Numbered from the stretch's first letter, positions 5,243-37,211 are shown. The stretch is DNA of 64,000 nt from an uncultured Fidelibacterota bacterium (GCA_902525615.1 CABZHT010000001.1:349282-413281); one strand, 5' to 3'. Translations and numbers: made by a program. The notes: generated by a model not told the origin, from the sequence alone.

Positions 5243-5243
5243 T

Positions 5244-6242: not shown

Positions 6243-6249
6243 AATAATT

Positions 6250-14458: not shown

Positions 14459-14461
14459 AAT

Positions 14462-16206: not shown

Positions 16207-16210
16207 GTCA

Positions 16211-19076: not shown

Positions 19077-19853
19077 GTGATGAAAGTTTCAATTATAACA
19101 TTGACATATAATTCTGAAAAAACGATATCTCGTTCTCTTAAATCTGTTAGTAATCAAACTTATAAAAATATTGAACACATAATTATTGATGGTAAATCGA
19201 AAGATAATACCATTCAAATAATTAATACTCACAATAAACATTCAATATTAGTATCAGAAAAAGATGAGGGTATTTATGATGCATGGAACAAAGGTATGAA
19301 ACTAGCTAATGGTGATATTGTAGGAACTGTAATGTCTGATGACTATTTAAAAAGTAAAACAACTATTGAAAGTATTGTTCAATCATTTAATAAGGAAGGT
19401 TGCGATATTTTATATGGAAATATGGATTTTGTATTAAATGGTGAAATAATAAGAAAATGGAGAGCTGGAAATTTTAAAAAATATAAATACTATTTTGGAT
19501 GGATGCCACCTCCTCCAGCAGTTTATATAAAAAACTCAATTATAAAAAAAAATAAACTATTTGATTTACAATATAAAATTGGCGCTGACTATGAATGGCT
19601 TTTGAGATTATTTTATATTAAAAACTATAATATATTTTACAAAGATGAGTATTTATATACATTAGAATACGGTGGAATAAGTAATAAGTCATTGAAAAAT
19701 GTTTTTAAAGGAAATATGGAAAATTATTATGCTTGGAAAAATAATAACCTATCTAAATTTCCATTTTGGGTTCCTATGAAACCTCTTTTTAAGATTTTTC
19801 AAATAAAGAAGTTAAGTAGTTTTTTTAAGTTCTACTTTTTGAAGTCTAACTGA
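19077..19853 (+). CDS. Family 2 glycosyltransferase
   Basis: VSIITLTYNSEKTISRSLKSVSNQTYKNIEHIIIDGKSKDNT and SDDY (DxD-like). It is the only + strand gene inside the 12.3-37.0 kb minus-strand run. Confidence 0.85.
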   Translation: MMKVSIITLTYNSEKTISRSLKSVSNQTYKNIEHIIIDGKSKDNTIQIINTHNKHSILVSEKDEGIYDAWNKGMKLANGDIVGTVMSDDYLKSKTTIESIVQSFNKEGCDILYGNMDFVLNGEIIRKWRAGNFKKYKYYFGWMPPPPAVYIKNSIIKKNKLFDLQYKIGADYEWLLRLFYIKNYNIFYKDEYLYTLEYGGISNKSLKNVFKGNMENYYAWKNNNLSKFPFWVPMKPLFKIFQIKKLSSFFKFYFLKSN

Positions 19854-21026
19854 TCTTATTGAAATAATATAGCCTATTATTGCAACAAAAAAGAAATTAA
19901 AAAACCTAAGCCCACCAAGTCTAAATTCAACAAAAAATGAGGCTATCAAAAAGGTATAAAGTATATATATGAAAATATTTCTATTTTTTTGAGGCAGATT
20001 CAAAAATTGCTCAATTATTGCAAAAATGTAAACTATAAATACTATTATTCCAGACTCAAAAATTAATGTAAGATAACTGTTATGAAGATGATCGGTAGAA
20101 TCAAATTCGAAAAGGCCCAATTCAAAATTTGTAAGAAACATATTTTTAATATCAAAATAACTGCTATAACCAAATCCAAATAAAAAATTATCTTTCAACA
20201 TTTCAATTGCATAAAACCATACAACTTCCCTACCAGAGCCTAAGTTTTCTAATCTTAGAATATTATAAAAAAAATCTAGTGGAATAATAAAATAAATAAG
20301 ACCAATCGAGAGTCCTAGTAATGCAAAATTTTTCAACCTAACAAAAGAAATAGTAGAAGCAAATATCATAGACAACCAAGCTGTGCGGCTAAACGAAATG
20401 AAAATACCAATGATTATTAATGATATTTTTATGAATTTTAAAGCAATTTTTTTATTAAAGAATAAAGTTGAGAATAAAATTGCAATGGTTGAACCATAAG
20501 AAATTTGATGTTCTAACAAACTCGCAGTATTTTTAAAAAATAGAAAGTTATAACTATCAATAGCTTTAGATGTAACAAAAAATATATTTGAATTTAAAAT
20601 ATTTAATGAGTTGATGATCCCAAAAAAAATCAACGTGTACAAAATTCCCTTACATAGTTTTATAAAAAAATTAAAGGTATCTTTTCTGTCAAATAAAAAA
20701 CTTAAAGCAAGCACATTTGAAAAAAAAGATAAGAAATAGCCTAAAACTCTAATTTCATTTTCAATAGAAAGGTTATGGTAAAATAGTTGAACGAATAAGT
20801 TTAAAAAAAAGAATAGAAAAAAATATTTTAGAAGCATAATTCTTTCATAGACCACTTTTACTTCTTTTTTCCTTATTAAAAAAATCAATACTGATAAAGA
20901 AATAAAAATTTGAAAAAAATAGAAGGGCGTTGCTACATTAAGGAAATTAATAATGAAATGTGTACTACCTAAAAAAGATAAAATAGTTAGTACAATAATA
21001 AAAAATTTTTCAATTGTTATTTTCAA
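19812..21026 (-). CDS. wzy: O-antigen/capsule repeat-unit polymerase (Wzy, O-antigen-ligase-like family)
   Basis: 404 aa with about 10-11 hydrophobic helices, FSRTAWLS and HLHNSYLTLIFESGII (Wzy_C-type motif). GC is very low: 11 of 60 (18%) in the line starting at 20641. Confidence 0.75.
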   Translation of the reverse strand: MKITIEKFFIIVLTILSFLGSTHFIINFLNVATPFYFFQIFISLSVLIFLIRKKEVKVVYERIMLLKYFFLFFFLNLFVQLFYHNLSIENEIRVLGYFLSFFSNVLALSFLFDRKDTFNFFIKLCKGILYTLIFFGIINSLNILNSNIFFVTSKAIDSYNFLFFKNTASLLEHQISYGSTIAILFSTLFFNKKIALKFIKISLIIIGIFISFSRTAWLSMIFASTISFVRLKNFALLGLSIGLIYFIIPLDFFYNILRLENLGSGREVVWFYAIEMLKDNFLFGFGYSSYFDIKNMFLTNFELGLFEFDSTDHLHNSYLTLIFESGIIVFIVYIFAIIEQFLNLPQKNRNIFIYILYTFLIASFFVEFRLGGLRFFNFFFVAIIGYIISIRSVRLQKVELKKTT

Positions 21027-21943
21027 AATAGAATAGGTCCATTAATTTTTGCTAGTTTCCAATAAGTCTTAAGTGAGATAACTTTCCTATTATTTTTAAT
21101 ATAGATTAAGTCATCTTTCATCAAATTATAAGCAATCTTTAAAACTTGAAATGTTTTATACTTTAAAATAAACTGTGTTGAGCGGATAAAAATATAAGAT
21201 AGTACAGATAAAAAATTTAAATTAAGCATAGCGACTTTAATTCTATTTTTTAGGTTTAGACCTGCTACGTCAATTGGGGGAATATACCTTGCATCATCTG
21301 TTTTGTTATGAAATACTTTAATATCTTTTGCATAAAAAATATCATATCCACTATCTTTAACTCTTATAGATAAATCTATTTCTTCTTGTCCATATGGGTA
21401 AAAGTCGTTGTAGTAATTAACTTTATCAAAAATTTCTTTTCGAAATGCATGTCCTGCACCAATAAACCAAGCACATTCAGTTAATGGGTTATTTAGTTTC
21501 TTCATTTTATTAAAAAAAGGAAATTCTTCTCTTCTAAAATCCATATTTTTATTTTTTAATATTGAAAATGCAATTATTCCTATATTTTTATGTTTTTTTA
21601 AAATTTGACGAGCATTTCTAATAGCATGAATTGATTCAAATTCTGCATCGTCATCAATTTCAATTATAATATCTCCCTTTGCTTTTTTAAGGCCAAAATT
21701 TCTACCACCGCTAACCCCAAGATTTTCATTCATTAAATAATAATCTGCTTTATACTTATCTGCTAGCTCTTGGTTTTTTCGCTGCTCAATTTCTTTCGAA
21801 TGATTATCGATAATGATAATTTCTTCAGGCGCTAATGATTGAAGAGATATATTCTCAAGTACAATTCTCATATGAGAAGAGCGATTCATTGTAAGAATTA
21901 CAATTGAAACAGAGCTTGTACTAGATTGGATTGCCTGATCCAT
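21023..21943 (-). CDS. Family 2 glycosyltransferase
   Basis: VSIVILTMNRSSHMRIVLENISLQS, IIIIDNHS, GVSGGRNFGL and IIEIDDDA (DxD). Confidence 0.85.
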   Translation of the reverse strand: MDQAIQSSTSSVSIVILTMNRSSHMRIVLENISLQSLAPEEIIIIDNHSKEIEQRKNQELADKYKADYYLMNENLGVSGGRNFGLKKAKGDIIIEIDDDAEFESIHAIRNARQILKKHKNIGIIAFSILKNKNMDFRREEFPFFNKMKKLNNPLTECAWFIGAGHAFRKEIFDKVNYYNDFYPYGQEEIDLSIRVKDSGYDIFYAKDIKVFHNKTDDARYIPPIDVAGLNLKNRIKVAMLNLNFLSVLSYIFIRSTQFILKYKTFQVLKIAYNLMKDDLIYIKNNRKVISLKTYWKLAKINGPILF

Positions 21944-22953
21944 ATTTCAGTCTCCTTTAACCCTGCATCAAAGGCTGTATACTTCATATTCAATTCTTTT
22001 TTAGAATTTAAATTAGAATATTTAGCTTGTGTAATCAGTAAACTTAGTTCATTTATATCGGGGTTCGCCTTCAGTCCAGATTGAGTTGATTTTAAAAGTG
22101 TATTTGAATATTTATTTTTTTGATACATAATGTTCACTAAAAATCTTAGATATTTTAATATGGGTTTTGCTATAAATCGAATTGGAGCTTGCAACAATAC
22201 AATAAATCTTAAATTAAAATTATTTTTAAATTTGATTTTATTATGATAAGTACCTATATCATAAAAATTATAGTATTCTTTCCATGTTATTTGGTCGTCA
22301 CTAATTATATTGCAAGTAATATTATTATCTTCATACTCACACGCAGAAATAATGGAATTAACCAAATCATTAATATAAGTAAGATTACATTGCGTTATTT
22401 CAGCTTTATAAGGAAGATTAAAACCATTCAATTTTCTTTCAATAATTCGATTTGTCCATAACGTTGATCCTTTTCCATAAATAATTCCAGGTCGTAAAAT
22501 GATAATTTGTAATTTATCTTTCAAACTATTCAGGAATTTTTCTGAATGAATCTTTGCTTTTGAATAGTCTCCTCTATCACCGACCATTTTAGAATTTTCA
22601 TTTATTATTCCTTTTAAATTACCATATACATCAGTACTACTTATGTGTATTAATTTTTTTGCTTTTTTATTAACGCAAGCATTTGCAATATTTGTGGTAC
22701 TATTTACTAAGGTATCGTAATCCCCGTTAATACAGTTAATAACTATGGAAGATTCATCAATCACACTCAAGGTCTCTTCATAATCAAGTGAATTACAAAT
22801 TGTTGTTTTAATTCCAAGATTTGAAATAAAAGAACAACTATTCTTATTTCTAATTATACATTTTAAATCATTTTTTGAATTCATCGATTCAGCAATTGCT
22901 GATCCAACAAATCCATTCGCACCAAAAATTATTATTTTATCTTTCATATGCAT
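21898..22953 (-). CDS. NAD-dependent epimerase/dehydratase-family protein with C-terminal extension
   Basis: IIIFGANGFVGSAI and YSKAKIHSE (YxxxK), plus about 100 aa of extra C-terminus with no recognised motif. Confidence 0.7.
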   Translation of the reverse strand: MHMKDKIIIFGANGFVGSAIAESMNSKNDLKCIIRNKNSCSFISNLGIKTTICNSLDYEETLSVIDESSIVINCINGDYDTLVNSTTNIANACVNKKAKKLIHISSTDVYGNLKGIINENSKMVGDRGDYSKAKIHSEKFLNSLKDKLQIIILRPGIIYGKGSTLWTNRIIERKLNGFNLPYKAEITQCNLTYINDLVNSIISACEYEDNNITCNIISDDQITWKEYYNFYDIGTYHNKIKFKNNFNLRFIVLLQAPIRFIAKPILKYLRFLVNIMYQKNKYSNTLLKSTQSGLKANPDINELSLLITQAKYSNLNSKKELNMKYTAFDAGLKETEIWIRQSNLVQALFQL

Positions 22954-23908
22954 CAGAAATTACTTTTATTGAATTTTCAACATCAAAAAAACTGGTACTG
23001 TTATTTTGAAAATTTAAAAAATTATCAAAAACAACTTTACCTAACTCATAATAATTATCTACTAAACCTTTTGCCATAATAACTTTACGGTAATTAGAGG
23101 AAATTATTTCATAAGAATTAAGATCATTAACTCCAAAGACAATTTTTCCATTTTCAAAAGCAATAATTACTTGATTTGCAAGCTTATACTTCCAACTTAA
23201 TGTAATATTTATAGGTATTTTCTTTTGTTTAGTCTCAAGCTTAATAAATGTGTGTGACTCAGGTAGAAATTTATTTGAATCTTTAAAAAATTCTTTTACT
23301 ACTAAATCATCTTCTAGCATCCATCCAATCAAATCTATAGCATGGGGTCCTCTATCAAGAAGTACTCCTTGTTGATTTTTAAAATAAAATCCGGAAGTAG
23401 AATCCCAATCAAATTTGCTTCCATCAGAATATGATACAGATTTTAAATCACCTAAATTAAAATTATCATTAACATTTATAAGAATTTTTTTTATATCAAT
23501 CGCCAAAGGAGAAAACCTTCTTGTTTGATTAATAAATATTTCTGCTTTTGATTTTTGAATTTTAGCTTTTAAAGTCAGATAATCCTTGTAATTAGAGACC
23601 ACAGGTTTTTCACATAGAATTTTAATATCATATTCTAATAAAATATTTAAAATATCATAGTTGAGTTGATATGGTACTGCTAAAACAACAAAAGAGTAAT
23701 TATTGAAATCAACTTCAGACATATCTTTATACGAAGTTTCGATTTTAAAAGAACTACAAGCAGACTTTAAAGTATTAATATCTTTTTCAAGAATAGCCAC
23801 ATTTTTTCTTTTGAAAAATTTTAATATTGCAGGCAAATGCATATTTTGTGCTATTTGACCGCATCCGATTAAAAGTATTTTACTATTTTTCATAAAAGAA
23901 TTTATCAA
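22937..23908 (-). CDS. Gfo/Idh/MocA-family oxidoreductase (second copy)
   Basis: ILLIGCGQIAQNMHLP and CEKPV (EKP motif). Length is 323 aa. Confidence 0.72.
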   Translation of the reverse strand: MINSFMKNSKILLIGCGQIAQNMHLPAILKFFKRKNVAILEKDINTLKSACSSFKIETSYKDMSEVDFNNYSFVVLAVPYQLNYDILNILLEYDIKILCEKPVVSNYKDYLTLKAKIQKSKAEIFINQTRRFSPLAIDIKKILINVNDNFNLGDLKSVSYSDGSKFDWDSTSGFYFKNQQGVLLDRGPHAIDLIGWMLEDDLVVKEFFKDSNKFLPESHTFIKLETKQKKIPINITLSWKYKLANQVIIAFENGKIVFGVNDLNSYEIISSNYRKVIMAKGLVDNYYELGKVVFDNFLNFQNNSTSFFDVENSIKVISDAYER

Positions 23909-24737
23909 AATCTAAATTTTTAGCACCTTTAATTCTACTTACAGGGCTAAAATTATATACTTTTACCCCTTTTTTAGATAAAAAATCCACGGCACTTTCT
24001 ATTGCAACTTGCATTCTATCTTGTCTTGGAAAGTGCCATCTCTTCCCTTTTCCAAACCAATCTTTGTGTAAATGATTATCATCAGAATCGGTAGAAGTAA
24101 TTATACTCCCATTGATTTTAGCAGATTCTGGTATCTTGTATGATAAGTCAACACCAAACAAGTATATTTTTTTGAAACCTAAAAAGTATGCAATTTGAAG
24201 GCTAAAATATACAACAGTTCCTCCCCAAAACCCCTTTCTAGACAAGTCATCTGAAAATTTAAATTCAAGGTTATTATCTTTTGTGGTCTCCCTTGAATCA
24301 ATATATGTATAATCAAAATTTATGTAAGTCACATTTTCACGATTTTTAATGTACTTTTTTAACTTAAGAGGAACAATAATATCGATATCCTTTATTTTAT
24401 TAAGTTCGGTAGAATTATCTTCTGCAGGTAACGGATCTTCTATAACATATAGAGAGGGCTTAAAAGTGTAAGTGTCTTTAAGTAGATAAAATGCGTTATG
24501 AACTATTGAAAATTTATCTTCTAAAATATTCAAGTTTTGATTTTTAATTGAAGGCCCTCCACCAATTATAAAACATTCATCATAATTTTTCTTAGTTTTT
24601 TTTAGACTATTAATTTTTTTCTTATCTAAATGCAAAGAAAGATTATATCGTACTAAAATATCCATGAAATTCTGATTAAGTCTTTTGATAAAAAAAATGA
24701 ATTGATAAGGAATAAAAAATCTAAAGATTCTTTTCAT
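23883..24737 (-). CDS. DUF115 / MptE-like (Maf- or sialyltransferase-like) protein, putative ulosonic-acid transferase
   Basis: ECFIIGGGPSIKNQNLNIL (the GxGPS loop typical of DUF115/GT42-like proteins) and FLGFKKIYLFGVDLSY (GxD block). Length is 284 aa. Family recalled from memory. Confidence 0.5.
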   Translation of the reverse strand: MKRIFRFFIPYQFIFFIKRLNQNFMDILVRYNLSLHLDKKKINSLKKTKKNYDECFIIGGGPSIKNQNLNILEDKFSIVHNAFYLLKDTYTFKPSLYVIEDPLPAEDNSTELNKIKDIDIIVPLKLKKYIKNRENVTYINFDYTYIDSRETTKDNNLEFKFSDDLSRKGFWGGTVVYFSLQIAYFLGFKKIYLFGVDLSYKIPESAKINGSIITSTDSDDNHLHKDWFGKGKRWHFPRQDRMQVAIESAVDFLSKKGVKVYNFSPVSRIKGAKNLDFDKFFYEK

Positions 24738-25647
24738 TTATTAATAGCTCCATATTTTCTATTGATTCAATTGCTTGATTTTGTACATTATCAATTGTTC
24801 GTGAAGCAGTATGGGGTGAGATAAAAATTTTACTATGACTATTAAAAATTATGCTATTTTTTTTCATTGGTTCCTCTTGGAGTACATCTGTAAGATAAGC
24901 TTGAATTTTTTGTTCTGTAAGCATCGAAATTATATCTGACTCGTTAACTACATGACCTCTTGAAGTATTAATTATGACTAGTTTTTTACTACAGTTTTTC
25001 AAAGAGCTTTTATTAACTAATTCAAATGTAGATTTATCAAGATTTGTATGCAACGATAAAAAATCAACTTCTGAAATTGCATCAGAAATATTTTCATATA
25101 AATCGTATTTATCAGTTTTAACAAATGGATCAACAACTATAACATTCATCTTAAAAGCTTCAGCAAGGCTAGCAACTCTTTTTCCTATAGCACCAAAACC
25201 TACAATCATAATGGTTTTATTTTTTATATCAGATCCTGCAAATCTTTTCCATTCTCCTTTTTTGGTATTTTTATAATTTTCAAATAGATTCTTTGAAAAG
25301 GATAATATTTTAGCAAAAACATGTTCAGCTACAGTATCCGAATTAACTCCTTTGCAATTTACTACTTTAATACCAACTTCTTTAGCATACTCTAAGTCAA
25401 TTTTATCTAAGCCAATACCATATTTTGAAATACCATAAAAAGTATCTCCGCTCCAACTATCTAAAACATCCTTATTAATTTCATCATCTCCACAAATGAT
25501 TCCATTTATGTTTTTTTTAAAATTAATTAGGGCATCAGAGCTTAATGGTCCCCTCAAGTAAAAAATGTTCCAAGATTTTGTTTTTAATAAATCAAAATGA
25601 GCACCGGGAGTATCTTGAAAGGATGTGCTAGTAATTAATATGTTCAT
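24721..25647 (-). CDS. D-isomer-specific 2-hydroxyacid dehydrogenase (SerA/GhrB-like)
   Basis: IMIVGFGAIGKRVA (NAD site), LSLHTNL, IINTSRG and ISPHTAS (catalytic His region). Length is 308 aa. Confidence 0.82.
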   Translation of the reverse strand: MNILITSTSFQDTPGAHFDLLKTKSWNIFYLRGPLSSDALINFKKNINGIICGDDEINKDVLDSWSGDTFYGISKYGIGLDKIDLEYAKEVGIKVVNCKGVNSDTVAEHVFAKILSFSKNLFENYKNTKKGEWKRFAGSDIKNKTIMIVGFGAIGKRVASLAEAFKMNVIVVDPFVKTDKYDLYENISDAISEVDFLSLHTNLDKSTFELVNKSSLKNCSKKLVIINTSRGHVVNESDIISMLTEQKIQAYLTDVLQEEPMKKNSIIFNSHSKIFISPHTASRTIDNVQNQAIESIENMELLINEKNL

Positions 25648-26276
25648 CTTATTAATGAATTAAAATTATGAAAATTTTTGATAGAATATACTACATCACT
25701 ATCAATTAAGTGCTCATTATCTCCTGTTAACCTTATACAAAAATCAATTGAATTCTGTACCGCAGCATCTTTATCGCTAAAGGCATCACCTATAAATAAT
25801 GAATCTTTATTTGAAATGATATTCTTTTTAATTAAATGAGTTAACCAATACTTTTTATCATTTGGTGATCCGTAGGATTTCTTAAAGAAACGTCTAATAT
25901 TTAACTCATCAAGAATTTTTAATAATTCCTCCGAAGGTGTAGCAGAAATGATATAAAAATTATAGGCTGTATGATTATTATCTAAAAACTCCTTAACGCC
26001 TTCAACAAAGGGTGCATTGCATACTTCTTTAAAAACTATTGATGAGAAATTATTAATAATTTTATTATAATCTTCTTTTGGAAGTTTAAATTTATTGATT
26101 ACGTATTCTACTTTATCAAACCTAGAAATTCCTCTATTTTTTAAGTGATAATTTTGACTAAAAGAAGCAACTTTTTCCCCATAATCTAAAAAAATTGAGA
26201 AAAACGCTTTATCCTTTACATGATTAGAATCAATAATCACACCATCAAAATCAAAAATAATTGTCTTATATTTCAT
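25644..26276 (-). CDS. HAD-IA family phosphatase
   Basis: IIFDFDGVIIDS (DxDG nucleophile motif), ISATP and FIGDAFSDKDAA. Length is 210 aa. Confidence 0.8.
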   Translation of the reverse strand: MKYKTIIFDFDGVIIDSNHVKDKAFFSIFLDYGEKVASFSQNYHLKNRGISRFDKVEYVINKFKLPKEDYNKIINNFSSIVFKEVCNAPFVEGVKEFLDNNHTAYNFYIISATPSEELLKILDELNIRRFFKKSYGSPNDKKYWLTHLIKKNIISNKDSLFIGDAFSDKDAAVQNSIDFCIRLTGDNEHLIDSDVVYSIKNFHNFNSLIR

Positions 26277-26899
26277 TTTCCTTCAGCTAAAATTATGTTC
26301 AATTTTTCTTTGTGCTCCATAAGTCGATTTAAAGGGTAAAAATCTTTATTGAAAAACTTTTTATATGCTTTAATTTTACTATCGCCTCTAAAATATAAAA
26401 TTATAGCTCTAGATCTTATAATGAAATCAAGATTAAGCGAAAATCTATTATATTTATGATACTCAGAATTACAATAAAACGAGTGATTTGAGTCATAAAT
26501 AACATCACACTTATTAGGAAAAATTGATGCAACATGTCCGTCATTTCCTACCCCAAGCATACATAAATCAAAATCTCTTTTTTGAAGTGTATCTTCATAA
26601 TTATTTATGGTGTTTTTATAGTTTTTCTCTGGTATGAAACCTTTAAAAGTGAAGTTTTTATATTTTAATTTTCTATATGAATTAAGGTTTGAATCACAAG
26701 AGTCATATTTAACATTTCTTTCATCTGTTAAATAAAAATGAAATTTCAAATTTTCTCGAGACATTCTTTTGAGCATAAATAAAAAACTTGTACCACCAGA
26801 AATTAAAATATCATCACCATCTTGACACTTATTTATAATATATTGAGCTAAAAAATTGTCAGCAGAATTAAGCTCTTCAAAATGTTTAATTGTCATCAT
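26273..26899 (-). CDS. 6-phosphogluconolactonase / glucosamine-6-P deaminase-family protein
   Basis: ILISGGTSF, YLTDERNV and LGVGNDGHVASIFP match the Pgl/DevB signature GxGxDGHxAS(L/I)FP. Length is 208 aa. Confidence 0.7.
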   Translation of the reverse strand: MMTIKHFEELNSADNFLAQYIINKCQDGDDILISGGTSFLFMLKRMSRENLKFHFYLTDERNVKYDSCDSNLNSYRKLKYKNFTFKGFIPEKNYKNTINNYEDTLQKRDFDLCMLGVGNDGHVASIFPNKCDVIYDSNHSFYCNSEYHKYNRFSLNLDFIIRSRAIILYFRGDSKIKAYKKFFNKDFYPLNRLMEHKEKLNIILAEGK

Positions 26900-27764
26900 T
26901 TAAAGATTGTACAATCTCAATTAGACCTTCTCCTAAATCGATATGTGGATTATTAGTAAGTTTTTTAACTGGATCTTTTTGGTAAGAATATGGGGTGCTT
27001 TTGTAATGAGTTTTTGATTGATTTTCATGCATACTAATTTGTAAGGAATTATCAAAGATCTCATTTATCATATCAAATAAATCTTTATACTTCATTGATT
27101 TGGTACCTGTTAACATTAGTGTATTTTTATCATACAACTCTTTAAAACTTTCTATAGTAAGCTCTGCTGCATCTTTCACATTTATAAATTCTCTTACCTC
27201 TTCACCAGTACCAGAATAATCAATTTTAGATTTTTTCAAAGCAGATTTTAAAAATCTATAAATAGAATTTCTATCATCTGAACCTAATCCATATAATGAA
27301 CCATATCGTAAAATAGTATAATTAAAACTATAGTTCTCAGAATACTCTTTAATTATTTCTTCACATGCTTTTTTACCAATAGCATAAAATGAACCACTAG
27401 TTCCTGAAGCATATGCTGAACTTGCGTAGATGTACTTTTTTAGTTTAGATGATTCTTTTAGAACATCTATAATATTTAAGTTAGATATAATATTTATCGT
27501 CAAAGATTCTTTTGGATTTTTATGACAATAGTCTAAATCGGATATTCCTGCAAAATTGATAACATAATCAAATTCATTTTTATTATTTTTTAAAAAATCA
27601 AGATCTTGAACAATATTTGAATGCACATTTGTTAAATTTTTACTTTCAATATTACATGAATTAATATCAAGATTAGTAACTTTGCAACCTTTAAATAAAA
27701 GCTGATTAATTACATGAGACCCTAAAAATCCTGAACCACCAATTACAAGAACATCACTTTTCAT
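26886..27764 (-). CDS. NAD-dependent epimerase/dehydratase (extended SDR)
   Basis: VLVIGGSGFLGSHV and YAIGKKACE (YxxxK). Length is 292 aa. Confidence 0.78.
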   Translation of the reverse strand: MKSDVLVIGGSGFLGSHVINQLLFKGCKVTNLDINSCNIESKNLTNVHSNIVQDLDFLKNNKNEFDYVINFAGISDLDYCHKNPKESLTINIISNLNIIDVLKESSKLKKYIYASSAYASGTSGSFYAIGKKACEEIIKEYSENYSFNYTILRYGSLYGLGSDDRNSIYRFLKSALKKSKIDYSGTGEEVREFINVKDAAELTIESFKELYDKNTLMLTGTKSMKYKDLFDMINEIFDNSLQISMHENQSKTHYKSTPYSYQKDPVKKLTNNPHIDLGEGLIEIVQSLNDDN

Positions 27765-28509
27765 TGATAATATCCTTTAATGAGTTTAAATGTGATACAA
27801 TGAATTTAAAATCAAGTCCATAGCCTAAAAAACTGTATCCTTCGTTTCTAGCAGCAATGAGCTTTTTAGGATCTGGTTCAACAATATGCATCCCAATTGG
27901 AATGTTATTTTCTCTTGCAATATTCTTAATCTTGTTAACTTCATTTAAAAAAAGTGGATTTTCGAATTCTCCTGCAATTCCTAAAGAACTTGTTAAATCA
28001 TATGGCCCAATCATTAGCGCATCAATATGCTTAACCGTTATTATTTCATTTAAATTTTCTACAGCATCACAATTTTCAATTTGAACAACTAATACTGATT
28101 CTTTATTATTTTTATGATAGTAAGAATCGAAGTTATTACCAAAATTTTGCGCACTAAATAGACCAGCACCTCTTTTACCTTCAGGTGGATATTTCATAAA
28201 CTTTACTGCATCATTTACATCTTCTAGACTTGAAATGTTAGGGGCTATAATACCATCTGCCCCACAGTCCATTATACGCTTAATATATATATTATCAACA
28301 ATTGGCGGTCTGACTAAACATCCAATATTTGTATTTTTGAAGAAAGAAATGGCTTGGTGTAACCCACTAAAATCAATGGCCGAATGTTCTAGCTCAATTA
28401 ATACCCAATCAAAAGGATATTCGGAGATAGACTGGTAAATAACTGGATGATCAATAGTAATCCAAGTCCCAAGCGTGCTTCCATTTTTTATCTTATTTTT
28501 TAAGTTCAT
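27754..28509 (-). CDS. HpcH/HpaI-family class II (metal-dependent) pyruvate aldolase
   Basis: FDWVLIELEHSA, LVRPP, MKYPPEGKRGAG, VVQIENCDAVENLNEI and ALMIGPYDLTSSLG match the HpaI/GarL/YfaU pattern along the whole length. The start is set at ATG 28509 (MNLKNKIKNG). Confidence 0.8.
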   Translation of the reverse strand: MNLKNKIKNGSTLGTWITIDHPVIYQSISEYPFDWVLIELEHSAIDFSGLHQAISFFKNTNIGCLVRPPIVDNIYIKRIMDCGADGIIAPNISSLEDVNDAVKFMKYPPEGKRGAGLFSAQNFGNNFDSYYHKNNKESVLVVQIENCDAVENLNEIITVKHIDALMIGPYDLTSSLGIAGEFENPLFLNEVNKIKNIARENNIPIGMHIVEPDPKKLIAARNEGYSFLGYGLDFKFIVSHLNSLKDIINEK

Positions 28510-29164
28510 CGCCTTTATATAATGCTCGTGCAAGTTGTAAATCTTCGTAATAATCAATATCAATAGATTCTAATTTATTTATTGTAAAGTAAAAAGGCTT
28601 ATTACCAATTCTATTATTTCCATTTTTAGTAAAAGAATCCTTACTAAAAATATAAAAACAAGAATTTTCTTCATATAATGGCTCTAAGTCTTGAGTTCTA
28701 AGAATATTAGATGAGCCATCATGATTAATTGGATTGTGTTTACTATCATAGAATCTACTTTTATGCTCATTTACGGATACTATACTATCATATGTATTAT
28801 TTTTATAAAATGAAATTGCTTTATCAATAGTCTTGGTCTTAAGTAATGGATTTGTAATATGTGTTTGAATAAATGAATTATTTTCAAACTGACTGATATC
28901 ATATTTAATAATGTCATTCATTGGAACAAAATCGCCAATCAATTCTTTAGGTCTGTTAATAAATTCAATTGAATTTGATGGATAAAATTTTTTTACTTCA
29001 CTAATAATTTTTTGGGAATCAGTATTAATAGCTACTTTTGATATGAAATTTGAACTTAATAGAGTATCAATTACAAAAGAGAATAAAGGCTTATTATCTA
29101 TAGTTTTGAAAGATTTATTTGGTATTCTTTCAGAATGTTCTTTAATTGGAAGTAATGCAATCAT
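28493..29164 (-). CDS. Acylneuraminate/Kdo-type cytidylyltransferase (CTP_transf_3 family, NeuA/KdsB-like)
   Basis: MIALLPIKEHSERIPNKSF ... NKPLFSFVIDT, INTDSQKI, THITNPLL, RTQDLEPLYEENSCFYIF and SIDIDYYEDLQLA. Length is 223 aa. Confidence 0.78.
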   Translation of the reverse strand: MIALLPIKEHSERIPNKSFKTIDNKPLFSFVIDTLLSSNFISKVAINTDSQKIISEVKKFYPSNSIEFINRPKELIGDFVPMNDIIKYDISQFENNSFIQTHITNPLLKTKTIDKAISFYKNNTYDSIVSVNEHKSRFYDSKHNPINHDGSSNILRTQDLEPLYEENSCFYIFSKDSFTKNGNNRIGNKPFYFTINKLESIDIDYYEDLQLARALYKGDELKK

Positions 29165-30576
29165 ACTTTTTTCAAATTTAATATATTTAAAGAGTATTCA
29201 CTAAAATTCCATTTTAAAAGCTTCAAATTTAGATAAACTGGAAACCAATTATTGAATGACAGCTGTATAAAAAATTGTGTAAGAACAATTCCTAATAAAC
29301 CATAAGATTGAACAAGTATGAATGAAATTAAAATAATTAATAATCCAGATATCAATCCTGGCCATAAAAATGGTACATGGTTAGTTGAAAGATATATATT
29401 CGCATGAAATCCGTGATGTGCTTCTAGTACAATTCCTACTGACATAATAATAAATAAATAATTATCAATAATTCTAATATCTTTAGAGAAGAAATTAATT
29501 AAATCATTTCCACTTAAAAAAATAGTAAATAGAGTGATACACAAAACCAAGATCGCATTTCTTATTATAAGAGATAAAGATTTTTTAACTTTATAAAAAT
29601 TCTTAGAAACTACCAAATTAATTAATGAAGGGTAGTTAGCATTAAATTGCGAAATAGATAAGGATCTTATAATTACTAATATTCTTACTGTAAGTAGGTA
29701 ACTAGCAATCAAAGAAGTATCAGATAATTGAGCTACAACAAGTGCAGTACCATTGTTAATAAAGTGACTACCAAATAACATTAAGCCATAACGCCATGTA
29801 GATGGCCAAATTTGATTAAAAATTTCTAGATTAAGAATTTTTGAATAGGCTATATTTTTTTTATTAATAATTTGACTAATCATTCTATTAGAGTAAAAGT
29901 TTGCAATTAGTTGCAATAATAATTCCATCAGAAATAAGTGAAGAATATTAAAATCTAATAAGATTAGGATAGTAAATAATATTATTTTTGATAAACCAAA
30001 TAGCGTCTCCAATAATCTAATTTTTGCAACAAAATTAAAACCCTCAATTATAGAAACAGATCTTGAAAAAAGAATTCTAAATATTGCAATTAATCCTACC
30101 AACCCAAAAGAAAGCCAATTTTCAATTGAATGGCTTCCAAGAGACATAATGTTCCATGAGATTAAAACACCTAAAGTTGAAATTAAAAATACTGCAAAAA
30201 TTGATAGTAGAATATATATCCTGGAGGTTAAAAAAAGAATATCTCCAATACCTTTTTTATTAATGATTTTGTGATTATCTAATTTTTCAAATGTGTAATT
30301 AAACTGATTTATTGATTTAGGTATACTATTATAGCCAGCAAGAAAATAATTAATACACCTTACTATGGATTGACCAAATCCAAAACTAGCTAAACTAATA
30401 AAACCCAGAAGCGTAGTTAGATATAGCCACAAAGAAATTTCATAAGAATTAAATTTTAAAATTATCAAAGGAAGTACAGCAATACCAATGCCAAACCTTG
30501 AAAAGGTGCTTAGGAAAGTCATTATAGTAGCATTATTTATAATTTTAATAAAGTTGCTATAAATAGTTTTACTCAC
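29161..30576 (-). CDS. wzx: Polysaccharide repeat-unit flippase (Wzx, MOP superfamily)
   Basis: 471 aa with about 12-14 TM helices and the typical Wzx N-terminus (NFIKIINNATIMTFLSTFSRFGIGIAVLPLII). Confidence 0.78.
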   Translation of the reverse strand: MSKTIYSNFIKIINNATIMTFLSTFSRFGIGIAVLPLIILKFNSYEISLWLYLTTLLGFISLASFGFGQSIVRCINYFLAGYNSIPKSINQFNYTFEKLDNHKIINKKGIGDILFLTSRIYILLSIFAVFLISTLGVLISWNIMSLGSHSIENWLSFGLVGLIAIFRILFSRSVSIIEGFNFVAKIRLLETLFGLSKIILFTILILLDFNILHLFLMELLLQLIANFYSNRMISQIINKKNIAYSKILNLEIFNQIWPSTWRYGLMLFGSHFINNGTALVVAQLSDTSLIASYLLTVRILVIIRSLSISQFNANYPSLINLVVSKNFYKVKKSLSLIIRNAILVLCITLFTIFLSGNDLINFFSKDIRIIDNYLFIIMSVGIVLEAHHGFHANIYLSTNHVPFLWPGLISGLLIILISFILVQSYGLLGIVLTQFFIQLSFNNWFPVYLNLKLLKWNFSEYSLNILNLKKV

Positions 30577-30585: not shown

Positions 30586-31758
30586 TTAATGTATACTTTT
30601 TTTATAAGAATTATACTTATGAACTAATAAAATATATATCAAAAGATAAAAATTTTTGATAGTAAAATATAAATTGTATAGATACGATTCCCTTATTACT
30701 AAATCTTTAAATCTATTAGAATTTGTTATAAAGTAATTATTTTTATCTAAATATATCAATGAACCATCTAGATAGTTTTTTTTTGAAAAATGTACGTCTT
30801 CAAATTCTCCCCAATGTAGATGATCTAAAAATAAGTTTTTACACATAATGCTTTTTTTACCTGTTATCGATCCACCTTGTAGAAATTGATTTGGAGAAGA
30901 TTGTTTTAAACGCAGAAATGGATATGATCTCATATATATATCTGCAATATTATTATTATAAACTTGATGATATGGTGCTCTTAATTTAGAAATGTCAACA
31001 TTAGGTATTTCAAGAAAATCAAAATAGTTACCATATTCTTTCATATTTGAATACCAATTTTTTGGTAATAAATATCTATCATGTAGTAAGCAAAGATTCT
31101 CAAATTTTGAAATTTTTATTAAAGTATTTTTTTTTCTAGAAATTGGACCTCTTATGTCAGGTGAAATTTTAACATCTTTTGAAATATAAACATTATTTGG
31201 TAACTGACTATCATATGGGCTTGGACCACAAATGTTTACTTCAAAATTTGGAATATTCTGATCTATAATTGATTCGACTAACGATTTTACAGAATCATTA
31301 TTTTGTCCATTAGTGATAATTCCAAAACTCCAGTTTTCTATTGAATCATTTTCTTTAAGTGTTGAGCTCTTTTTAATGTAATTTAATATCGTAAAGTTTT
31401 TTCCTTCTTCTTTTGATTTCAAAATATATCTTCCATTTGTGGACACTGAAAATTCATACATTATTTGCATTACTGATCTTATGCCCAAAGCATGTCTTTG
31501 ATTTTTCATTGATGTAAAAATAATTTTAAAATTTCCGCTTGGTTGAAGTAAGATATCTAGTTCCTTTATTATGAAACGGATAAGAGAGTTTCTATCTAAA
31601 ATATAAGCTGCTGTAACGCTTTCAACAGATTCTGGCGCTATTTTTTTTGATTTATAAATTCTTCTAGTATGATTTACATCTTTTTTAGAAAGTGATAAGT
31701 CATAATAATCACTTTTATGTTTGTTTATAGACCAAAGAACTTTTTTATATTCATTCAT
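30586..31758 (-). CDS. Hypothetical two-domain protein (N-terminal Rossmann/methyltransferase-like region, GT-A-like region, C-terminal TM helix)
   Basis: 390 aa. WSFGIITNGQNNDSVKSLVESIIDQNIPNFEVNICG and RKKNTLIKISKFENLCLLHDRY resemble the first strands of a GT-A fold, but with HDR where DxD is expected. The C-terminus LYFTIKNFYLLIYILLV is hydrophobic. No confident family assignment. Confidence 0.55.
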   Translation of the reverse strand: MNEYKKVLWSINKHKSDYYDLSLSKKDVNHTRRIYKSKKIAPESVESVTAAYILDRNSLIRFIIKELDILLQPSGNFKIIFTSMKNQRHALGIRSVMQIMYEFSVSTNGRYILKSKEEGKNFTILNYIKKSSTLKENDSIENWSFGIITNGQNNDSVKSLVESIIDQNIPNFEVNICGPSPYDSQLPNNVYISKDVKISPDIRGPISRKKNTLIKISKFENLCLLHDRYLLPKNWYSNMKEYGNYFDFLEIPNVDISKLRAPYHQVYNNNIADIYMRSYPFLRLKQSSPNQFLQGGSITGKKSIMCKNLFLDHLHWGEFEDVHFSKKNYLDGSLIYLDKNNYFITNSNRFKDLVIRESYLYNLYFTIKNFYLLIYILLVHKYNSYKKSIH

Positions 31759-32458
31759 GAAAAAAACTGCTTAATGATTTGACTAATTTAACTTTTAATG
31801 GTTCTACAATACTATTTTGATCAATAATACCATTTACTGAAGGACAGATAAACAACAAGTTATTATACATTACTTCTTCTTTATTTTTTATTGAAAAGTC
31901 AATGGCAGATAATAAGGTAGATAAGTTTCTAAAAATATAAGTTCCTGCTGATGCATTATCAGAAATCACGTCTTTTTCTTTTGTTTTTATAACCTTATTA
32001 GAGTCATCAATTATTAAATAACTAAATTTATCTTCATTTGACTTAAAATAAGGTATTATTGCATTTATATTGCTTTCTAAGAACATAGATTCAATACTTT
32101 TATAATTTTTGATTTCATAAATAATATCAACTAAATCGATGATAATTGGCTCCTCAAAGTCTTTTATAATAGATAAACCAGATAGGACAGTCATCAAAGC
32201 ACCTTGAGTAATTTCTGGAATTTTTACAATTTTTGAGCCTGGATAAGATTTATTAGCATAATCTTCAAAAATAATTGATTCGTTCGTGTCCCTTAAAATG
32301 AATATTAAGTCTTCATTTAAAATTTCTTTATTATAAATCCAAGGTCTCGAATTTAAAATAAAATTAATTAGTGTATCCTCATTGTATTTTGTTAAGGGTT
32401 TAATACCATATTCTTTTCTATAAAAATCTGGTCCAGCAAGAGGAATAATGCACTTCAT
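31751..32458 (-). CDS. Nucleotidyltransferase-fold paralogue with degenerate G-rich loop
   Basis: It is a paralogue of the next two genes (TQGALMTVL vs TEGAACTVL/TDGAARTVL, ISDNASAGTYIF vs ISDIATVGIYMF/ISDDATAGVYYF, LFICPSVN vs FYVCPVYN). However, its N-terminal loop is IIPLAGPDFYRK instead of PMAGRGSRF. Confidence 0.65.
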   Translation of the reverse strand: MKCIIPLAGPDFYRKEYGIKPLTKYNEDTLINFILNSRPWIYNKEILNEDLIFILRDTNESIIFEDYANKSYPGSKIVKIPEITQGALMTVLSGLSIIKDFEEPIIIDLVDIIYEIKNYKSIESMFLESNINAIIPYFKSNEDKFSYLIIDDSNKVIKTKEKDVISDNASAGTYIFRNLSTLLSAIDFSIKNKEEVMYNNLLFICPSVNGIIDQNSIVEPLKVKLVKSLSSFFHE

Positions 32459-33186
32459 TTTGATTTTTTTTTAATAAAGTTTTTTAAATCTTCGGGTGTA
32501 CCAATACCGTGCATTGCATCAAATGGTATATTATGTATTCCAATATTTTTTTTATTATTTATTAAGTAATTATATACAGGGCAAACATAAAATTCATTAT
32601 TAACTCTATCATTTCTAACTATCATATCAAGTGCGTTTTCAACAAAAAATTTTCCTTTTTTAAACATGTAAATCCCTACGGTAGCTATATCTGAAATAGG
32701 TTCTTTTTCTTTTACCTCCACAACCAAACCTTTACTATCAATTTTTGCAAAAGACCATTTTTTGTTTTTTTGAGGATCTTTAAATGTTAAAATTGATCCA
32801 TCGAGATTTCTTTCTGAACAATCTGAGACAAAATCACCAATGTCAATATCAATAATTTGATCTGAGTTGGCTATTATTAATGAATTATTTGAATTGATAT
32901 ATTTTCTTGCGAAGAGCACTGTGCAAGCCGCGCCTTCTGTAACCATATCTATTGGAATAAATACTACATTATATTTATTTTTAATTTTTGCTACTGTATC
33001 GGGAAAATTTTCAATATGTTCTTTTCTTACAATCAATATAAATCTTGCATTATCAACCTTCAAATTGCTTAAAACATTCTCGATCATTGTTTTACCAAGC
33101 ACATCAATAAACGGCTTGGGCTTTTTATAGCCTCCATCAACAAATCTACTACCTCTTCCAGCCATGGGTATTACAATATCTATCAT
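32455..33186 (-). CDS. Sugar/alcohol-phosphate nucleotidyltransferase (GT-A fold, LicC/MobA-like loop)
   Basis: MIDIVIPMAGRGSRF ... KPKPFIDVLGKTMI is the canonical nucleotidyltransferase P-loop-like signature. Length is 243 aa. Confidence 0.75.
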   Translation of the reverse strand: MIDIVIPMAGRGSRFVDGGYKKPKPFIDVLGKTMIENVLSNLKVDNARFILIVRKEHIENFPDTVAKIKNKYNVVFIPIDMVTEGAACTVLFARKYINSNNSLIIANSDQIIDIDIGDFVSDCSERNLDGSILTFKDPQKNKKWSFAKIDSKGLVVEVKEKEPISDIATVGIYMFKKGKFFVENALDMIVRNDRVNNEFYVCPVYNYLINNKKNIGIHNIPFDAMHGIGTPEDLKNFIKKKSK

Positions 33187-37038: not shown

Positions 37039-37134
37039 ATTTCTTAAAATGATTAGTTAATTTATATATTTAATGAACCATTCAAAATATTAAATGTTTT
37101 TTTAAATGAATGTGATTATAATGATTTATTTTTA

Positions 37135-37208
37135 GGGCCCATAGCTCAATTGGTTAGAGCAACGGACTCATAATCCGCAGGTTCGGGGTTCAAGTCCCTG
37201 TGGGCCCA
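37135..37208 (+). tRNA. tRNA with CAU anticodon: elongator tRNA-Met or tRNA-Ile2 (lysidine type); not initiator
   Basis: Hand-folded 74-nt cloverleaf. Acceptor stem GGGCCCA/TGGGCCC, D stem GCTC/GAGC with loop AATTGGTTA, anticodon loop CTCATAA (CAT at 37169-37171), 5-nt variable loop, T arm CGGGG-TTCAAGT-CCCTG, discriminator A. The G1-C72 pair and the lack of three G-C pairs in the anticodon stem argue against tRNA-fMet. CCA is not encoded. Confidence 0.92.
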
Positions 37209-37211
37209 CAT

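Follow-up and report, generated by a model that had tools for sequence, protein, structure and literature searches.

The closest described systems for the synthesis of CMP-activated keto-sugar acids are the CMP-Kdo and the nonulosonic acid pathways. In the former (KdsD, KdsA, KdsC and KdsB, followed by WaaA/WaaZ), a sugar phosphate is converted to a keto acid phosphate, which passes to a phosphatase and a CTP_transf_3 cytidylyltransferase before transfer; the latter employ synthases such as NeuB/PseI/LegI, cytidylyltransferases such as NeuA/PseF/LegF, and Maf proteins or sialyltransferases. Class II metal-dependent aldolases of the HpcH/HpaI family (GarL, HpaI, RhmA/YfaU) are ordinarily catabolic, and in the non-phosphorylative oxidative sugar pathways an HpcH-type aldolase is found together with a dehydrogenase and a lactonase. 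A precedent for the formation of an ulosonic acid from pyruvate and an aldose, in a form activatable by a CTP_transf_3 enzyme, is the reversal of NanA in chemoenzymatic sialic acid synthesis. NanA, however, belongs to the class I (Schiff-base) aldolases, has a different fold and is catabolic in vivo, and we know of no natural biosynthetic pathway relying on it.

The cassette described here was identified in a 64,000-nucleotide stretch of DNA (hereafter the window) from a marine bacterium, where it sits within a surface-polysaccharide gene cluster (Table 1); Wza and a TonB-dependent receptor are also encoded in the window. The first-pass annotation had placed seven consecutive minus-strand genes joined by start/stop overlaps downstream of wzx. 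All seven open reading frames lie at those coordinates, and all the quoted motifs (RTQDL, SIDIDYYEDL, LIELEHS, YPPEGKRGAG, VQIEN, GPYDL and GVGNDGHVASIFP) were found. Neighbouring genes share 4 to 17 nt, a figure which presumes translation of the aldolase from the ATG at 28509 and not from the TTG at 28563, from which the frame is also readable; the ATG is the likely start, since all the homologues in the alignment begin at its equivalent. The string of overlapping genes runs on downstream into the GFO_IDH_MocA, second SDR, GT2 and Wzy genes. Each of the seven proteins scored above the Pfam gathering cut-off for its expected family, and none reached a curated equivalog cut-off in NCBIfam.

Table 1. 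Genes of the cassette and its surroundings, in order of decreasing coordinate
Predicted product	Coordinates	Strand	Family match	Remarks
Wzx-like O-unit flippase	29161-30576	-	NCBIfam WZX_like	directly upstream; 4-nt overlap with cytidylyltransferase gene
CTP_transf_3 cytidylyltransferase	28493-29164	-	Pfam PF02348	aldolase-linked 'CTP3a' clade
HpcH/HpaI class II metal-dependent 2-oxoacid aldolase	27754-28509	-	Pfam PF03328	
Extended SDR (Epimerase family)	26886-27764	-	Pfam PF01370	292 aa
6-phosphogluconolactonase-family protein, probable lactonase	26273-26899	-	Pfam PF01182	
HAD-IA phosphatase	25644-26276	-	Pfam HAD_2	
D-isomer 2-hydroxyacid dehydrogenase	24721-25647	-	2-Hacid_dh_C	
MptE-like (formerly DUF115) predicted glycosyltransferase	23883-24737	-	Pfam PF01973	
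GFO_IDH_MocA oxidoreductase	22937-23908	-	Pfam PF01408, 52 bits	overlaps transferase gene
Second SDR	21898-22953	-	Pfam	downstream, same overlapping gene string
GT2 glycosyltransferase	21023-21943	-	Pfam	downstream, same overlapping gene string
Wzy-type polymerase	19812-21026	-	Pfam	downstream, same overlapping gene string

The cassette resembles the CMP-Kdo pathway in its predicted succession of steps, in a local WaaZ match of its transferase and in the SIS-type isomerases of sister architectures. It differs in the absence of KdsA (DAHP_synth_1), in whose place the HpcH aldolase stands, in a phosphatase of the HAD-IA and not the KdsC type (HAD-SF-IIIA, 24.6 bits against a cut-off of 44.6), in a cytidylyltransferase scoring 33 bits at most on the KdsB models of NCBIfam, and in the addition of two dehydrogenases and a lactonase-like enzyme. 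With the nonulosonic acid systems, which some carriers possess side by side with the cassette, it shares a cytidylyltransferase nearest PseF and NeuA and a transferase whose model folds like Maf and CstII, but it lacks NeuB, NeuC, PseG and aminotransferase genes, and its C-C bond would be made with a metal-bound 2-oxoacid enolate instead of PEP. It differs from the non-phosphorylative pathways in having no dehydratase and in possessing a phosphatase, a cytidylyltransferase, a glycosyltransferase and a biosynthetic context.

The cytidylyltransferase (CTP_transf_3, 77 bits) is predicted to make a CMP-activated keto-sugar acid. PseF is its best NCBIfam match (84 bits against an equivalog cut-off of 206), and its matches among PDB sequences are CMP-Neu5Ac synthetases only. 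Its identity with the aldolase-linked homologues of C. lari, Paludibacter and locus L088 is 44-51%, as against just 25% with a NeuB-linked enzyme; judged by such identities, the aldolase-linked cytidylyltransferases form a clade distinct from the NeuB-linked enzyme.

The aldolase (HpcH_HpaI, 110 bits) has GarL, HpaI and RhmA as its nearest named families, with scores of only 88-130 bits against equivalog cut-offs of 369-441. Its residues H42, R67, E145 and D171 align with His50, Arg75, Glu153 and Asp179 of GarL, so that all four catalytic and metal residues are kept, and these positions are invariant across 22 homologues in the alignment; the enzyme is predicted to be a catalytically intact class II aldolase. 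The cassette aldolases share this residue set with the catabolic enzymes, but they form a separate clade, members from all the architectures being 50-64% identical among themselves, and they occur in polysaccharide loci beside a cytidylyltransferase instead of aromatic or sugar-acid catabolic operons. The window enzyme is an outlier with about 42% identity to the rest of the clade.

The MptE-like protein (53 bits, cut-off 35), proposed in the first-pass annotation as the transferase of the CMP-sugar, was also examined as a structural model. The AlphaFold model (pLDDT 89.8) has as its best PDB folds Maf (5mu5, E = 3e-6), the HPPK-type MptE, and the sialyltransferases CstII and ST8SiaIII, and the sequence carries a local match to the Kdo-III-transferase WaaZ (33.5 bits). 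The proposal is supported by this likeness to CMP-sugar-donor enzymes and by WaaZ/Maf-like transferases in 26 of 63 related loci, and the protein is predicted from its model to be a glycosyltransferase with a CMP-sugar acid as donor. The flippase encoded directly upstream of the cassette reaches 191.9 bits on WZX_like (cut-off 300).

Four enzymes remain. The SDR (Epimerase, 114 bits) carries the GxxGxxG and YxxxK motifs and is nearest, at 68 bits or less, to NDP-sugar epimerases and dehydratases in the PDB. The lactonase-like protein (Glucosamine_iso, 93 bits; TIGR01198 pgl, 89.7 bits against a cut-off of 124) matches 6PGL structures only in the PDB. The phosphatase (HAD_2, 56 bits; DFDGVIID motif) gives 46 bits with a beta-PGM-family hydrolase model of NCBIfam and weak matches to hexitol and 6-phosphogluconate phosphatases; its nearest families are sugar-phosphate and sugar-acid-phosphate phosphatases. 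The 2-hydroxyacid dehydrogenase (2-Hacid_dh_C, 151 bits; best PDB match 1wwk, 134 bits) is PGDH-like overall (TIGR01327, 180 bits against a cut-off of 454), but its loop 'c-GDDEIN' aligns with 'vRSKPKVT' and is devoid of the PGDH substrate-loop Arg-Ser; a role in converting 3-phosphoglycerate to phosphohydroxypyruvate is therefore doubtful.

The occurrence of the cassette in other genomes was examined in 63 related aldolase loci, each flanked by 3 kb or more on both sides. A CTP_transf_3 gene adjoins the aldolase gene in 62 of these, and the two are naturally fused in one protein (P0261). The loci span the Bacteroidota, Campylobacterota, Deferribacterota, Desulfobacterota, Omnitrophota, Bdellovibrionota and others; the arrangement goes far beyond chance, and the same partnership recurs across many phyla. 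The cassette is present in dozens of further species, Campylobacter among them. The 2-hydroxyacid dehydrogenase gene is found in 55/63 loci, an SDR in 50/63 (a GFO-family dehydrogenase replacing it in other architectures and in L090) and a HAD phosphatase in 40/63, L088 carrying an inositol-monophosphatase-family gene instead. The slot between the SDR and HAD genes holds a PGL-like gene in six loci and a cyclase-family (PF04199) hydrolase gene in 40 (together 46/63), never both; neither occurs in L046, L057, L061, L083 and L088. A NanQ/YhcH-like anomerase gene is present in 17/63 loci, in several of them next to the cytidylyltransferase and aldolase genes or between the two. Travelling with the aldolase-cytidylyltransferase pair are an MptE/Maf/WaaZ-like transferase and a flippase.

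The surroundings of the cassette are also conserved in part. The flippase keeps its position in L085, and flippase genes adjoin the aldolase in other architectures too; the order second SDR-GT2-Wzy, and the GFO_IDH_MocA gene following the MptE-like gene, recur in L085 and L090. The GFO_IDH_MocA oxidoreductase is possibly a member of the module, or else belongs to the pathway of the next sugar. In L090, a related genome, the transferase is 60% identical, and the transferase with its flanking genes 50-60%, but the cassette is only 28-43% identical, with a GFO gene in place of the SDR and a cyclase in place of the lactonase-like gene; conserved flanks around a divergent and partly exchanged cassette imply functionally equivalent cassettes.

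The absence of NeuB and KdsA from the window, as earlier noted, was upheld by family scans of nearly all its open reading frames, and NeuB, NeuC or PseI-type genes were not found there. A tblastn search of the window with NeuB from locus L001 and with an E. coli KdsA sequence, the KdsA probe having no positive control, gave a best E-value of 4.5. NeuB lies within about 9 kb of the aldolase in only 13 of the 63 loci, and among the 42 with a window-type cytidylyltransferase it is nearby in four and not in 38. The host, a Gram-negative, very probably carries kdsA and kdsB outside the window.

On balance, the seven genes probably form a self-contained, NeuB/KdsA-independent route for making, activating and transferring a CMP-activated 2-ulosonic acid in a Wzx/Wzy-dependent cluster. 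The aldolase would form the C3-C4 bond of a 4-hydroxy-2-oxo acid from an aldose phosphate and either pyruvate or hydroxypyruvate supplied by the 2-hydroxyacid dehydrogenase. The HAD enzyme would remove the terminal phosphate, like KdsC in the Kdo pathway, and the lactonase-like enzyme may hold the acid in the ring form required by the next enzyme, a task that at other loci would fall to the cyclase-family hydrolase or to a DUF386 protein of the NanQ type. The SDR would epimerise or otherwise tailor the sugar, the cytidylyltransferase would produce the CMP donor, and the MptE-like enzyme would attach the sugar acid to a repeat unit flipped by Wzx and polymerised by Wzy. The core of the scheme in the first-pass annotation is retained, the aldolase and the NeuA-type enzyme being an invariant and once fused pair mostly devoid of NeuB; the roles it gave to the lactonase, dehydrogenase and phosphatase are putative, and supply through phosphohydroxypyruvate is doubtful. 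HpcH aldolases being ordinarily catabolic, and aldol condensation being thermodynamically weaker than a PEP-driven reaction, are points against this scheme, as are the outlying position of the window aldolase in its clade and the missing PGDH Arg-Ser of the 2-hydroxyacid dehydrogenase; the scheme also leaves the recurrent dehydrogenase and lactonase-like hydrolase pair without a necessary role.

That pair finds a role if the carbon skeleton is derived from a sugar phosphate and not by aldol condensation, which appears rather unlikely. Starting from an aldose phosphate, C1 oxidation by the SDR (or GFO) would yield a lactone for the lactonase-like or cyclase hydrolase to open; oxidation at C2 by the 2-hydroxyacid dehydrogenase would then lead to a 2-keto-aldonate phosphate, from which the HAD enzyme would remove the phosphate. 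The aldolase would only equilibrate the C3/C4 stereochemistry by retro-aldol and aldol reactions or exchange the aldehyde part, and the cytidylyltransferase and MptE-like enzyme would work as above. The dehydrogenase, hydrolase, phosphatase and 2-hydroxyacid dehydrogenase set fits such an oxidative route equally well. All the recurrent enzymes, aldolase and cytidylyltransferase included, are employed, and the reaction order is closely matched by the window gene order SDR-lactonase-HAD-2-hydroxyacid dehydrogenase; the specifically 6PGL-like lactonase, the 6-phosphogluconate phosphatases among the weak best matches of the HAD enzyme and the missing PGDH phosphate loop point the same way, and in other architectures SIS_2 isomerases would provide the aldose phosphate. 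Stereocontrol at C4 is poor in HpcH aldolases, and epimerases of the AraD type operate through retro-aldol chemistry. An invariant and sometimes fused aldolase-cytidylyltransferase pair, however, is more easily reconciled with a step on the main line than with an accessory epimerase, the five loci noted above lack both hydrolases, and to our knowledge no SDR of this clade has sugar-phosphate 1-dehydrogenase activity.

It is still less likely that the cytidylyltransferase activates a canonical ulosonic acid (Kdo or a nonulosonic acid) produced by a KdsA or NeuB whose gene lies outside the window, and that the genes for the aldolase, dehydrogenase and phosphatase make another product such as a glyceroyl/lactyl-type substituent or a rare neutral sugar. 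A Gram-negative host, with Wza and a TonB-dependent receptor encoded in the window, must carry kdsA elsewhere, the WaaZ match is to a Kdo transferase, and the Campylobacterota aldolase block occurs in loci also bearing NeuB, methyltransferases and acyltransferases, glyceroyl-modified nonulosonic acids being known in Campylobacter (SugarBase preprint 10.64898/2026.04.20.719630). Against this, the cytidylyltransferase is far nearer PseF/NeuA than KdsB, its clade travels with the aldolase (in P0261 as a fusion) and not with NeuB, which is not nearby in most window-type loci, and genes of the NeuB, NeuC or PseI type are missing from the window. That the genes serve in the catabolism or salvage of sugar acids and are merely located inside a polysaccharide island, as the nearest named aldolase families and the resemblance of dehydrogenase, lactonase and HpcH aldolase to L-rhamnose, D-xylose and glucarate catabolic routes might suggest, is very improbable given the absence of dehydratase, kinase, transporter and regulator among them, their translational coupling between wzx and the glycosyltransferase, GT2 and wzy genes, the near-constant cytidylyltransferase linkage and aldolase equivalog scores far under the cut-offs.

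No paper or curated family covering the gene set was found, nor any paper in the literature search connecting HpcH aldolases with CMP-sugars. The earlier suggestion of a candidate undescribed NeuB/KdsA-less CMP-keto-acid pathway stands on comparative-genomic grounds, because the pair is invariant or fused, NeuB is mostly absent, a transferase is often present and the set is undescribed. As far as the sequences indicate, the aldolase is an obligate partner of a distinct NeuA/PseF-like cytidylyltransferase clade; were the oxidative route to hold, it would not necessarily be the chain builder.

The seven consecutive minus-strand open reading frames (ORFs), which the first-pass annotation had described as an aldolase-centred module, were recovered as a gene set on reading the ORFs, and the Pfam searches placed all seven in the families predicted for them (see the table). 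A gene for a Wzx-like flippase lies directly upstream (WZX_like 192 bits, below the cut-off of 300), and the same string continues downstream with a GFO_IDH_MocA oxidoreductase (GFO), a second SDR, a GT2 and a Wzy gene, the stops and starts of which all overlap. None of the seven proteins falls in a named equivalog of the NCBIfam curated models (release of June 2026).

Features of the window and of the compared loci, with their coordinates and supporting matches
Feature	Position	Strand	Details
HldE halves, separate genes	1361-1783 and 42660-43577		heptose-7-P kinase domain; RfaE domain II-like adenylyltransferase/cytidylyltransferase
RNase P RNA gene	6249-6592	minus	bacterial class A, 263 bits
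Heptose/GDP-sugar set	10339-19006		gmhA (plus strand), transaldolase/FSA-like, second SIS_2 isomerase, GmhB-like HAD, GFO, classical SDR, GHMP kinase, epimerase, GDP-mannose 4,6-dehydratase, fcl-like reductase
Polysaccharide island	10.9-37 kb		about 26 kb
Wzx/Wzy cluster genes			Wzy_C 53 bits; Wzz 22.7 bits (weak); Bac_transf 202 bits; two GT2
Seven-gene module	23883-29164	minus	genes 1 to 7 below, in transcription order
1, cytidylyltransferase		minus	CTP_transf_3 (PF02348), 77 bits
2, aldolase		minus	HpcH_HpaI (PF03328), 109.7 bits, gathering cut-off 25; start most likely the ATG at 28509, because homologues begin there
3, extended SDR		minus	Epimerase, 114 bits
4, 6-phosphogluconolactonase-family (PGL-like) protein		minus	Glucosamine_iso, 93 bits
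5, HAD phosphatase		minus	HAD_2, 56 bits
6, 2-hydroxyacid dehydrogenase (2HADH)		minus	2-Hacid_dh_C, 151 bits
7, MptE-like putative transferase (former DUF115)		minus	PF01973, 52.8 bits, cut-off 34.6
Three cluster ORFs	30586-32458 and 34555-35196		390, 235 and 213 aa; no Pfam match
HAD_2::NTP_transferase fusion and stand-alone NTP_transferase	32455-34616		fusion of 477 aa
Ugd-like (UDP-glucose/GDP-mannose dehydrogenase-like) ORF	36205-37209		277 aa only; no match to the C-terminal domain of the family
APS-kinase-like ORF	41912-42376		short
Wza-like exporter	44320-46236		638 aa
Second sugar group	44320-49317		Wza-like exporter, dTDP-glucose 4,6-dehydratase-like, GalE-like, PseC/LegC-like DegT aminotransferase
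AroB-related phospholyase, locus L087	7085-8164		'sugar phosphate phospholyase (cyclizing)', TIGR04425, 455 bits, above cut-off
APS kinase and/or sulfotransferase genes, Campylobacter lari (L004)	2218-5414		adjoining the aldolase module
APS kinase and/or sulfotransferase genes, related MAG (L090)	686-1672		adjoining the aldolase module

The aldolase scores 130, 130 and 88 bits against the GarL, HpaI and RhmA models, the equivalog cut-offs of which are 407, 369 and 441, respectively. On alignment, residues H42, R67, E145 and D171 of the 251-aa window protein correspond to His50, Arg75, Glu153 and Asp179 of GarL, the first two of which are catalytic and the last two metal-binding in the GarL and HpaI structures. 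These positions are invariant across 22 homologues, and at the level of the alignment the active site is shown to be intact. Close relatives of the window aldolase include four proteins of 520-1019 aa (P0153, P0154, P0175 and P0217), which carry two or three tandem HpcH domains.

The other module enzymes likewise stay below the curated cut-offs. The cytidylyltransferase reaches 84 bits against PseF (cut-off 206) and at most 33 bits against the KdsB models (cut-offs 155-281). The PGL-like protein scores 89.7 bits against TIGR01198 (cut-off 124.45), retains the 6PGL signature GxGxDGHxAS(I/L)FP as GVGNDGHVASIFP and matches 6PGL structures alone in the PDB, with at most 43 bits. The 2HADH scores 180 bits against the phosphoglycerate dehydrogenase (PGDH) model TIGR01327, far under the cut-off of 454, and the PGDH loop 'vRSxxKVT' (1wwk, 2ekl) aligns with 'c-GDDEIN' in the window protein; this Arg-Ser substrate-loop motif is missing in all 16 module 2HADH homologues aligned. 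The assignment of the 2HADH as a true SerA was therefore rejected, a PGDH identity being unlikely without the loop.

Related loci were collected through a scan of species-representative genomes, from which the best 80 loci of at least 564 matches, with aldolases 38-46% identical to that of the window, were taken; ORFs were called in 85 loci and clustered by all-against-all BLASTP, and the gene order was read around the aldolase. The 63 loci with at least 3 kb on each side of the aldolase constitute the evaluable set. The module recurs in the related aldolase loci of other genomes, and its confinement to the present organism was thus rejected. Carriers that can be cultured include C. lari (CP063088), C. 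hyointestinalis, Mucilaginibacter spp., Sulfurimonas sp. CS5 and Seleniivibrio woodruffii. The co-occurrence of HpcH and CTP_transf_3, which the first-pass annotation had put forward for checking, holds in 62 of the 63 loci, in which a CTP_transf_3 gene adjoins the aldolase. Other frequent neighbours are the 2-hydroxyacid dehydrogenase (55/63), the extended SDR (50/63), the HAD phosphatase and a hydrolase of the cyclase family PF04199 (40/63 each) and an MptE-like gene (26/63). The PGL-like gene is present in only 6 of the 63 loci and hence is not universal to the cassette.

Three architectures were distinguished. The window-type order is CTP3a-ALD-SDR-(cyclase or PGL)-HAD-2HADH...MptE, where ALD denotes the HpcH/HpaI aldolase and CTP3a the aldolase-linked CTP_transf_3 clade that includes the window enzyme; in Campylobacter lari such a module occurs in the capsule locus, adjoining kpsC/kpsS-type genes. 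The second, typical of Bacteroidia, reads 2HADH-GFO-SIS_2-classical SDR-AroB-related phospholyase-DUF386-CTP3a-cyclase-ALD-MptE, in which DUF386 stands for a YhcH/NanQ-family protein. The third, found in Campylobacterota, comprises flippase-ALD-CTP3b...methyltransferases-2HADH-SDR-cyclase-HAD and is often near NeuB genes. The AroB-related phospholyase identified in L087 occurs with aldolase and cytidylyltransferase genes in 13 other loci of the Bacteroidia type (11/63 evaluable), which also hold GmhA-like, IolG-like and classical SDR genes. The possibility that the aldolase differs between architectures was rejected, since the aldolases share 50-64% identity across all of them; a single reaction is thus probable throughout.

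No locus has both the cyclase and the PGL-like protein, and the window-type loci place either one between the SDR and the HAD genes. A shared slot combined with mutual exclusion is the signature of non-orthologous replacement, and the exclusion (40 versus 6 loci) suggests that this clade of the arylformamidase-like PF04199 family has lactonase or related hydrolase activity. Such an activity is not known to have been described in the family.

Several observations in addition to the adjacency connect the aldolase with the cytidylyltransferase. CTP_transf_3 and HpcH are fused in one representative protein, P0261 (478 aa). With aldolase-linked enzymes of three other phyla the window cytidylyltransferase shares 44-51% identity, against only 25% with the NeuB-linked C. 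hyointestinalis enzyme. A gene for a NanQ-like anomerase is found in 17 loci, in several of which it lies beside or between the cytidylyltransferase and aldolase genes, and the cyclase gene occupies the interval between the two in the second architecture. Adjacency, fusion, clade identities, intervening genes and the GarL-type residues together argue that the two enzymes act on the same molecule.

The textbook routes to CMP-ulosonic acids (Kdo, sialic, pseudaminic and legionaminic acids) all begin with a PEP-dependent synthase. The absence of NeuB and KdsA from the 64-kb window, on which the initial proposal depended, was borne out by family scans and by tblastn, the KdsA probe for which was used without a positive control. 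Thus, of the canonical pair, a synthase encoded together with a cytidylyltransferase, the window carries the CTP_transf_3 member only. Among the related loci, NeuB is present near the aldolase in 13 and absent from 50 of the 63.

The AlphaFold model of the MptE-like protein (35 homologues used, pLDDT 89.8) has as its top PDB fold match the Maf flagellin glycosyltransferase 5mu5 (E = 3.2e-6); MptE, the sialyltransferase CstII with bound CMP and ST8SiaIII rank after it, and the TM-scores are modest at 0.33-0.44. No match to the PDB was found by sequence, and the hit to the Kdo-III transferase WaaZ (33.5 bits, cut-off 200) is a local match only. An MptE-like relative is present on a Vibrio cyclitrophicus contig, which is truncated.

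The related MAG L090 carries the same island as the window, and its MetK is 71% identical; labelled Hydrogenophilales, it is the closest relative that bears a label. The Ugd-like, Wzz, GT2 and MptE-like proteins of L090 retain 50-60% identity to their window counterparts, whereas its biosynthetic block, GFO-SIS_2-2HADH-139-aa ORF-ALD-CTP3-cyclase, is only 28-43% identical to that of the window; in the 139-aa ORF a DFDG motif is seen by eye, with no Pfam match. As the transferase has been kept while the cassette has been exchanged, both cassettes probably supply an identical or closely similar donor. Six enzymes make up the recurrent recipe: a dehydrogenase of SDR or GFO type, a PGL-like or cyclase hydrolase, a phosphatase, the 2HADH, the aldolase and the cytidylyltransferase.

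The module is located inside a polysaccharide island with a G+C content of 25-28%, as against 30-36% in the flanks, which bear the housekeeping genes metK, ahcY, fabH, RNase P RNA, gpmA and adk. A flippase, a polymerase, a chain-length regulator, an initiating transferase and glycosyltransferases are found together, as in a Wzx/Wzy-dependent cluster; further island genes are for heptose and GDP-sugar enzymes and for nucleotidyltransferases. The contig is 642,810 bp long. Near-identical proteins derive from marine samples (Tara, ENA, JGI), and a Delaware-coast metagenome contig (L085) bears this cluster too, its proteins being 70-87% identical. The GFO of the heptose/GDP-sugar set is 32-33% identical to the GFO accompanying the aldolase in other architectures; therefore, part of this set might serve the aldolase pathway and not a GDP-6-deoxyheptose.

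Among the remaining cluster genes, the 390-aa and 235-aa ORFs that match no Pfam family are both conserved in L085, and the HAD_2::NTP_transferase fusion resembles a nucleotidyltransferase for a further activated sugar to which a phosphomutase or phosphatase has been attached. The truncated Ugd-like gene abuts a tRNA-Met at the low-G+C island edge; L085 and L090 share the short form, which is therefore not a recent truncation. The two HldE halves are split about 41 kb apart, and no NeuB accompanies the second sugar group beyond the island. The APS-kinase-like ORF near the island and the genes adjoining the aldolase modules of C. lari and L090 hint at sulfation of these polysaccharides.

We infer that the cassette produces a 2-ulosonic acid in CMP-activated form and does so independently of NeuB and KdsA. 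In the preferred scheme, modelled on the logic of Kdo synthesis, the aldolase would condense an aldose phosphate with a 2-oxoacid, either pyruvate or hydroxypyruvate supplied by the 2HADH; the HAD protein would then remove the phosphate, a lactonase or anomerase would prepare the ring form, the SDR would tailor the sugar, the cytidylyltransferase would activate it and the MptE-like enzyme would transfer it. The chief alternative is an oxidative route, in which an aldose phosphate would be converted through a lactone and an aldonate to a 2-keto-aldonate and the aldolase would only equilibrate stereochemistry; it employs all six enzymes of the recurrent recipe. The aldol and the oxidative readings alike lead to a CMP-keto-sugar acid by a non-canonical route. 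The theme, CMP-ulosonic acid biosynthesis, is known; the key enzyme would differ.

Full-text literature searches found no paper treating the gene set as a pathway. The sole mention found is a locus list for Leptospira serovar Hardjo, which names an aldolase, a 6-phosphogluconolactonase, an inositol monophosphatase and a cytidylyltransferase and gives no function. A SugarBase preprint (10.64898/2026.04.20.719630) reports new CMP-linked keto acids and leaves aldolases unmentioned. The hexulosonic acid of E. coli K3 offers a further literature lead.

On the broadest reading, advanced tentatively and with a confidence slightly short of even, the cassette represents a widespread and so far unrecognised CMP-ulosonic logic, in which a class II HpcH aldolase replaces the PEP-dependent NeuB/KdsA synthase to yield a keto-sugar acid not yet assigned to any gene set, perhaps a 3-hydroxy or short-chain ulosonic acid. 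The pathway would serve the surface glycans of numerous phyla, among which are Campylobacter, Helicobacter-related, Bacteroides/Prevotella and probably Leptospira lineages. Genome mining for CMP-ulosonic sugars depends on the detection of NeuB or KdsA, to which such cassettes, if the reading is true, would be invisible. It would also define a cytidylyltransferase family and give the Maf/WaaZ-like transferases a donor, both of them new, could account for keto acids of bacterial polysaccharides such as hexulosonic, pentulosonic and heptulosaric acids, for which no genes are known to have been described, and would make the aldolase and cytidylyltransferase pair a useful biocatalytic route from pyruvate to CMP-sugar analogues. 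Animal-associated Campylobacter carriers have the cassette within a capsule locus or next to glycan genes that include NeuB, and abundant marine bacteria have it in a hypervariable surface-glycan island; given this location, its product is likely an antigen and a phage-receptor determinant.
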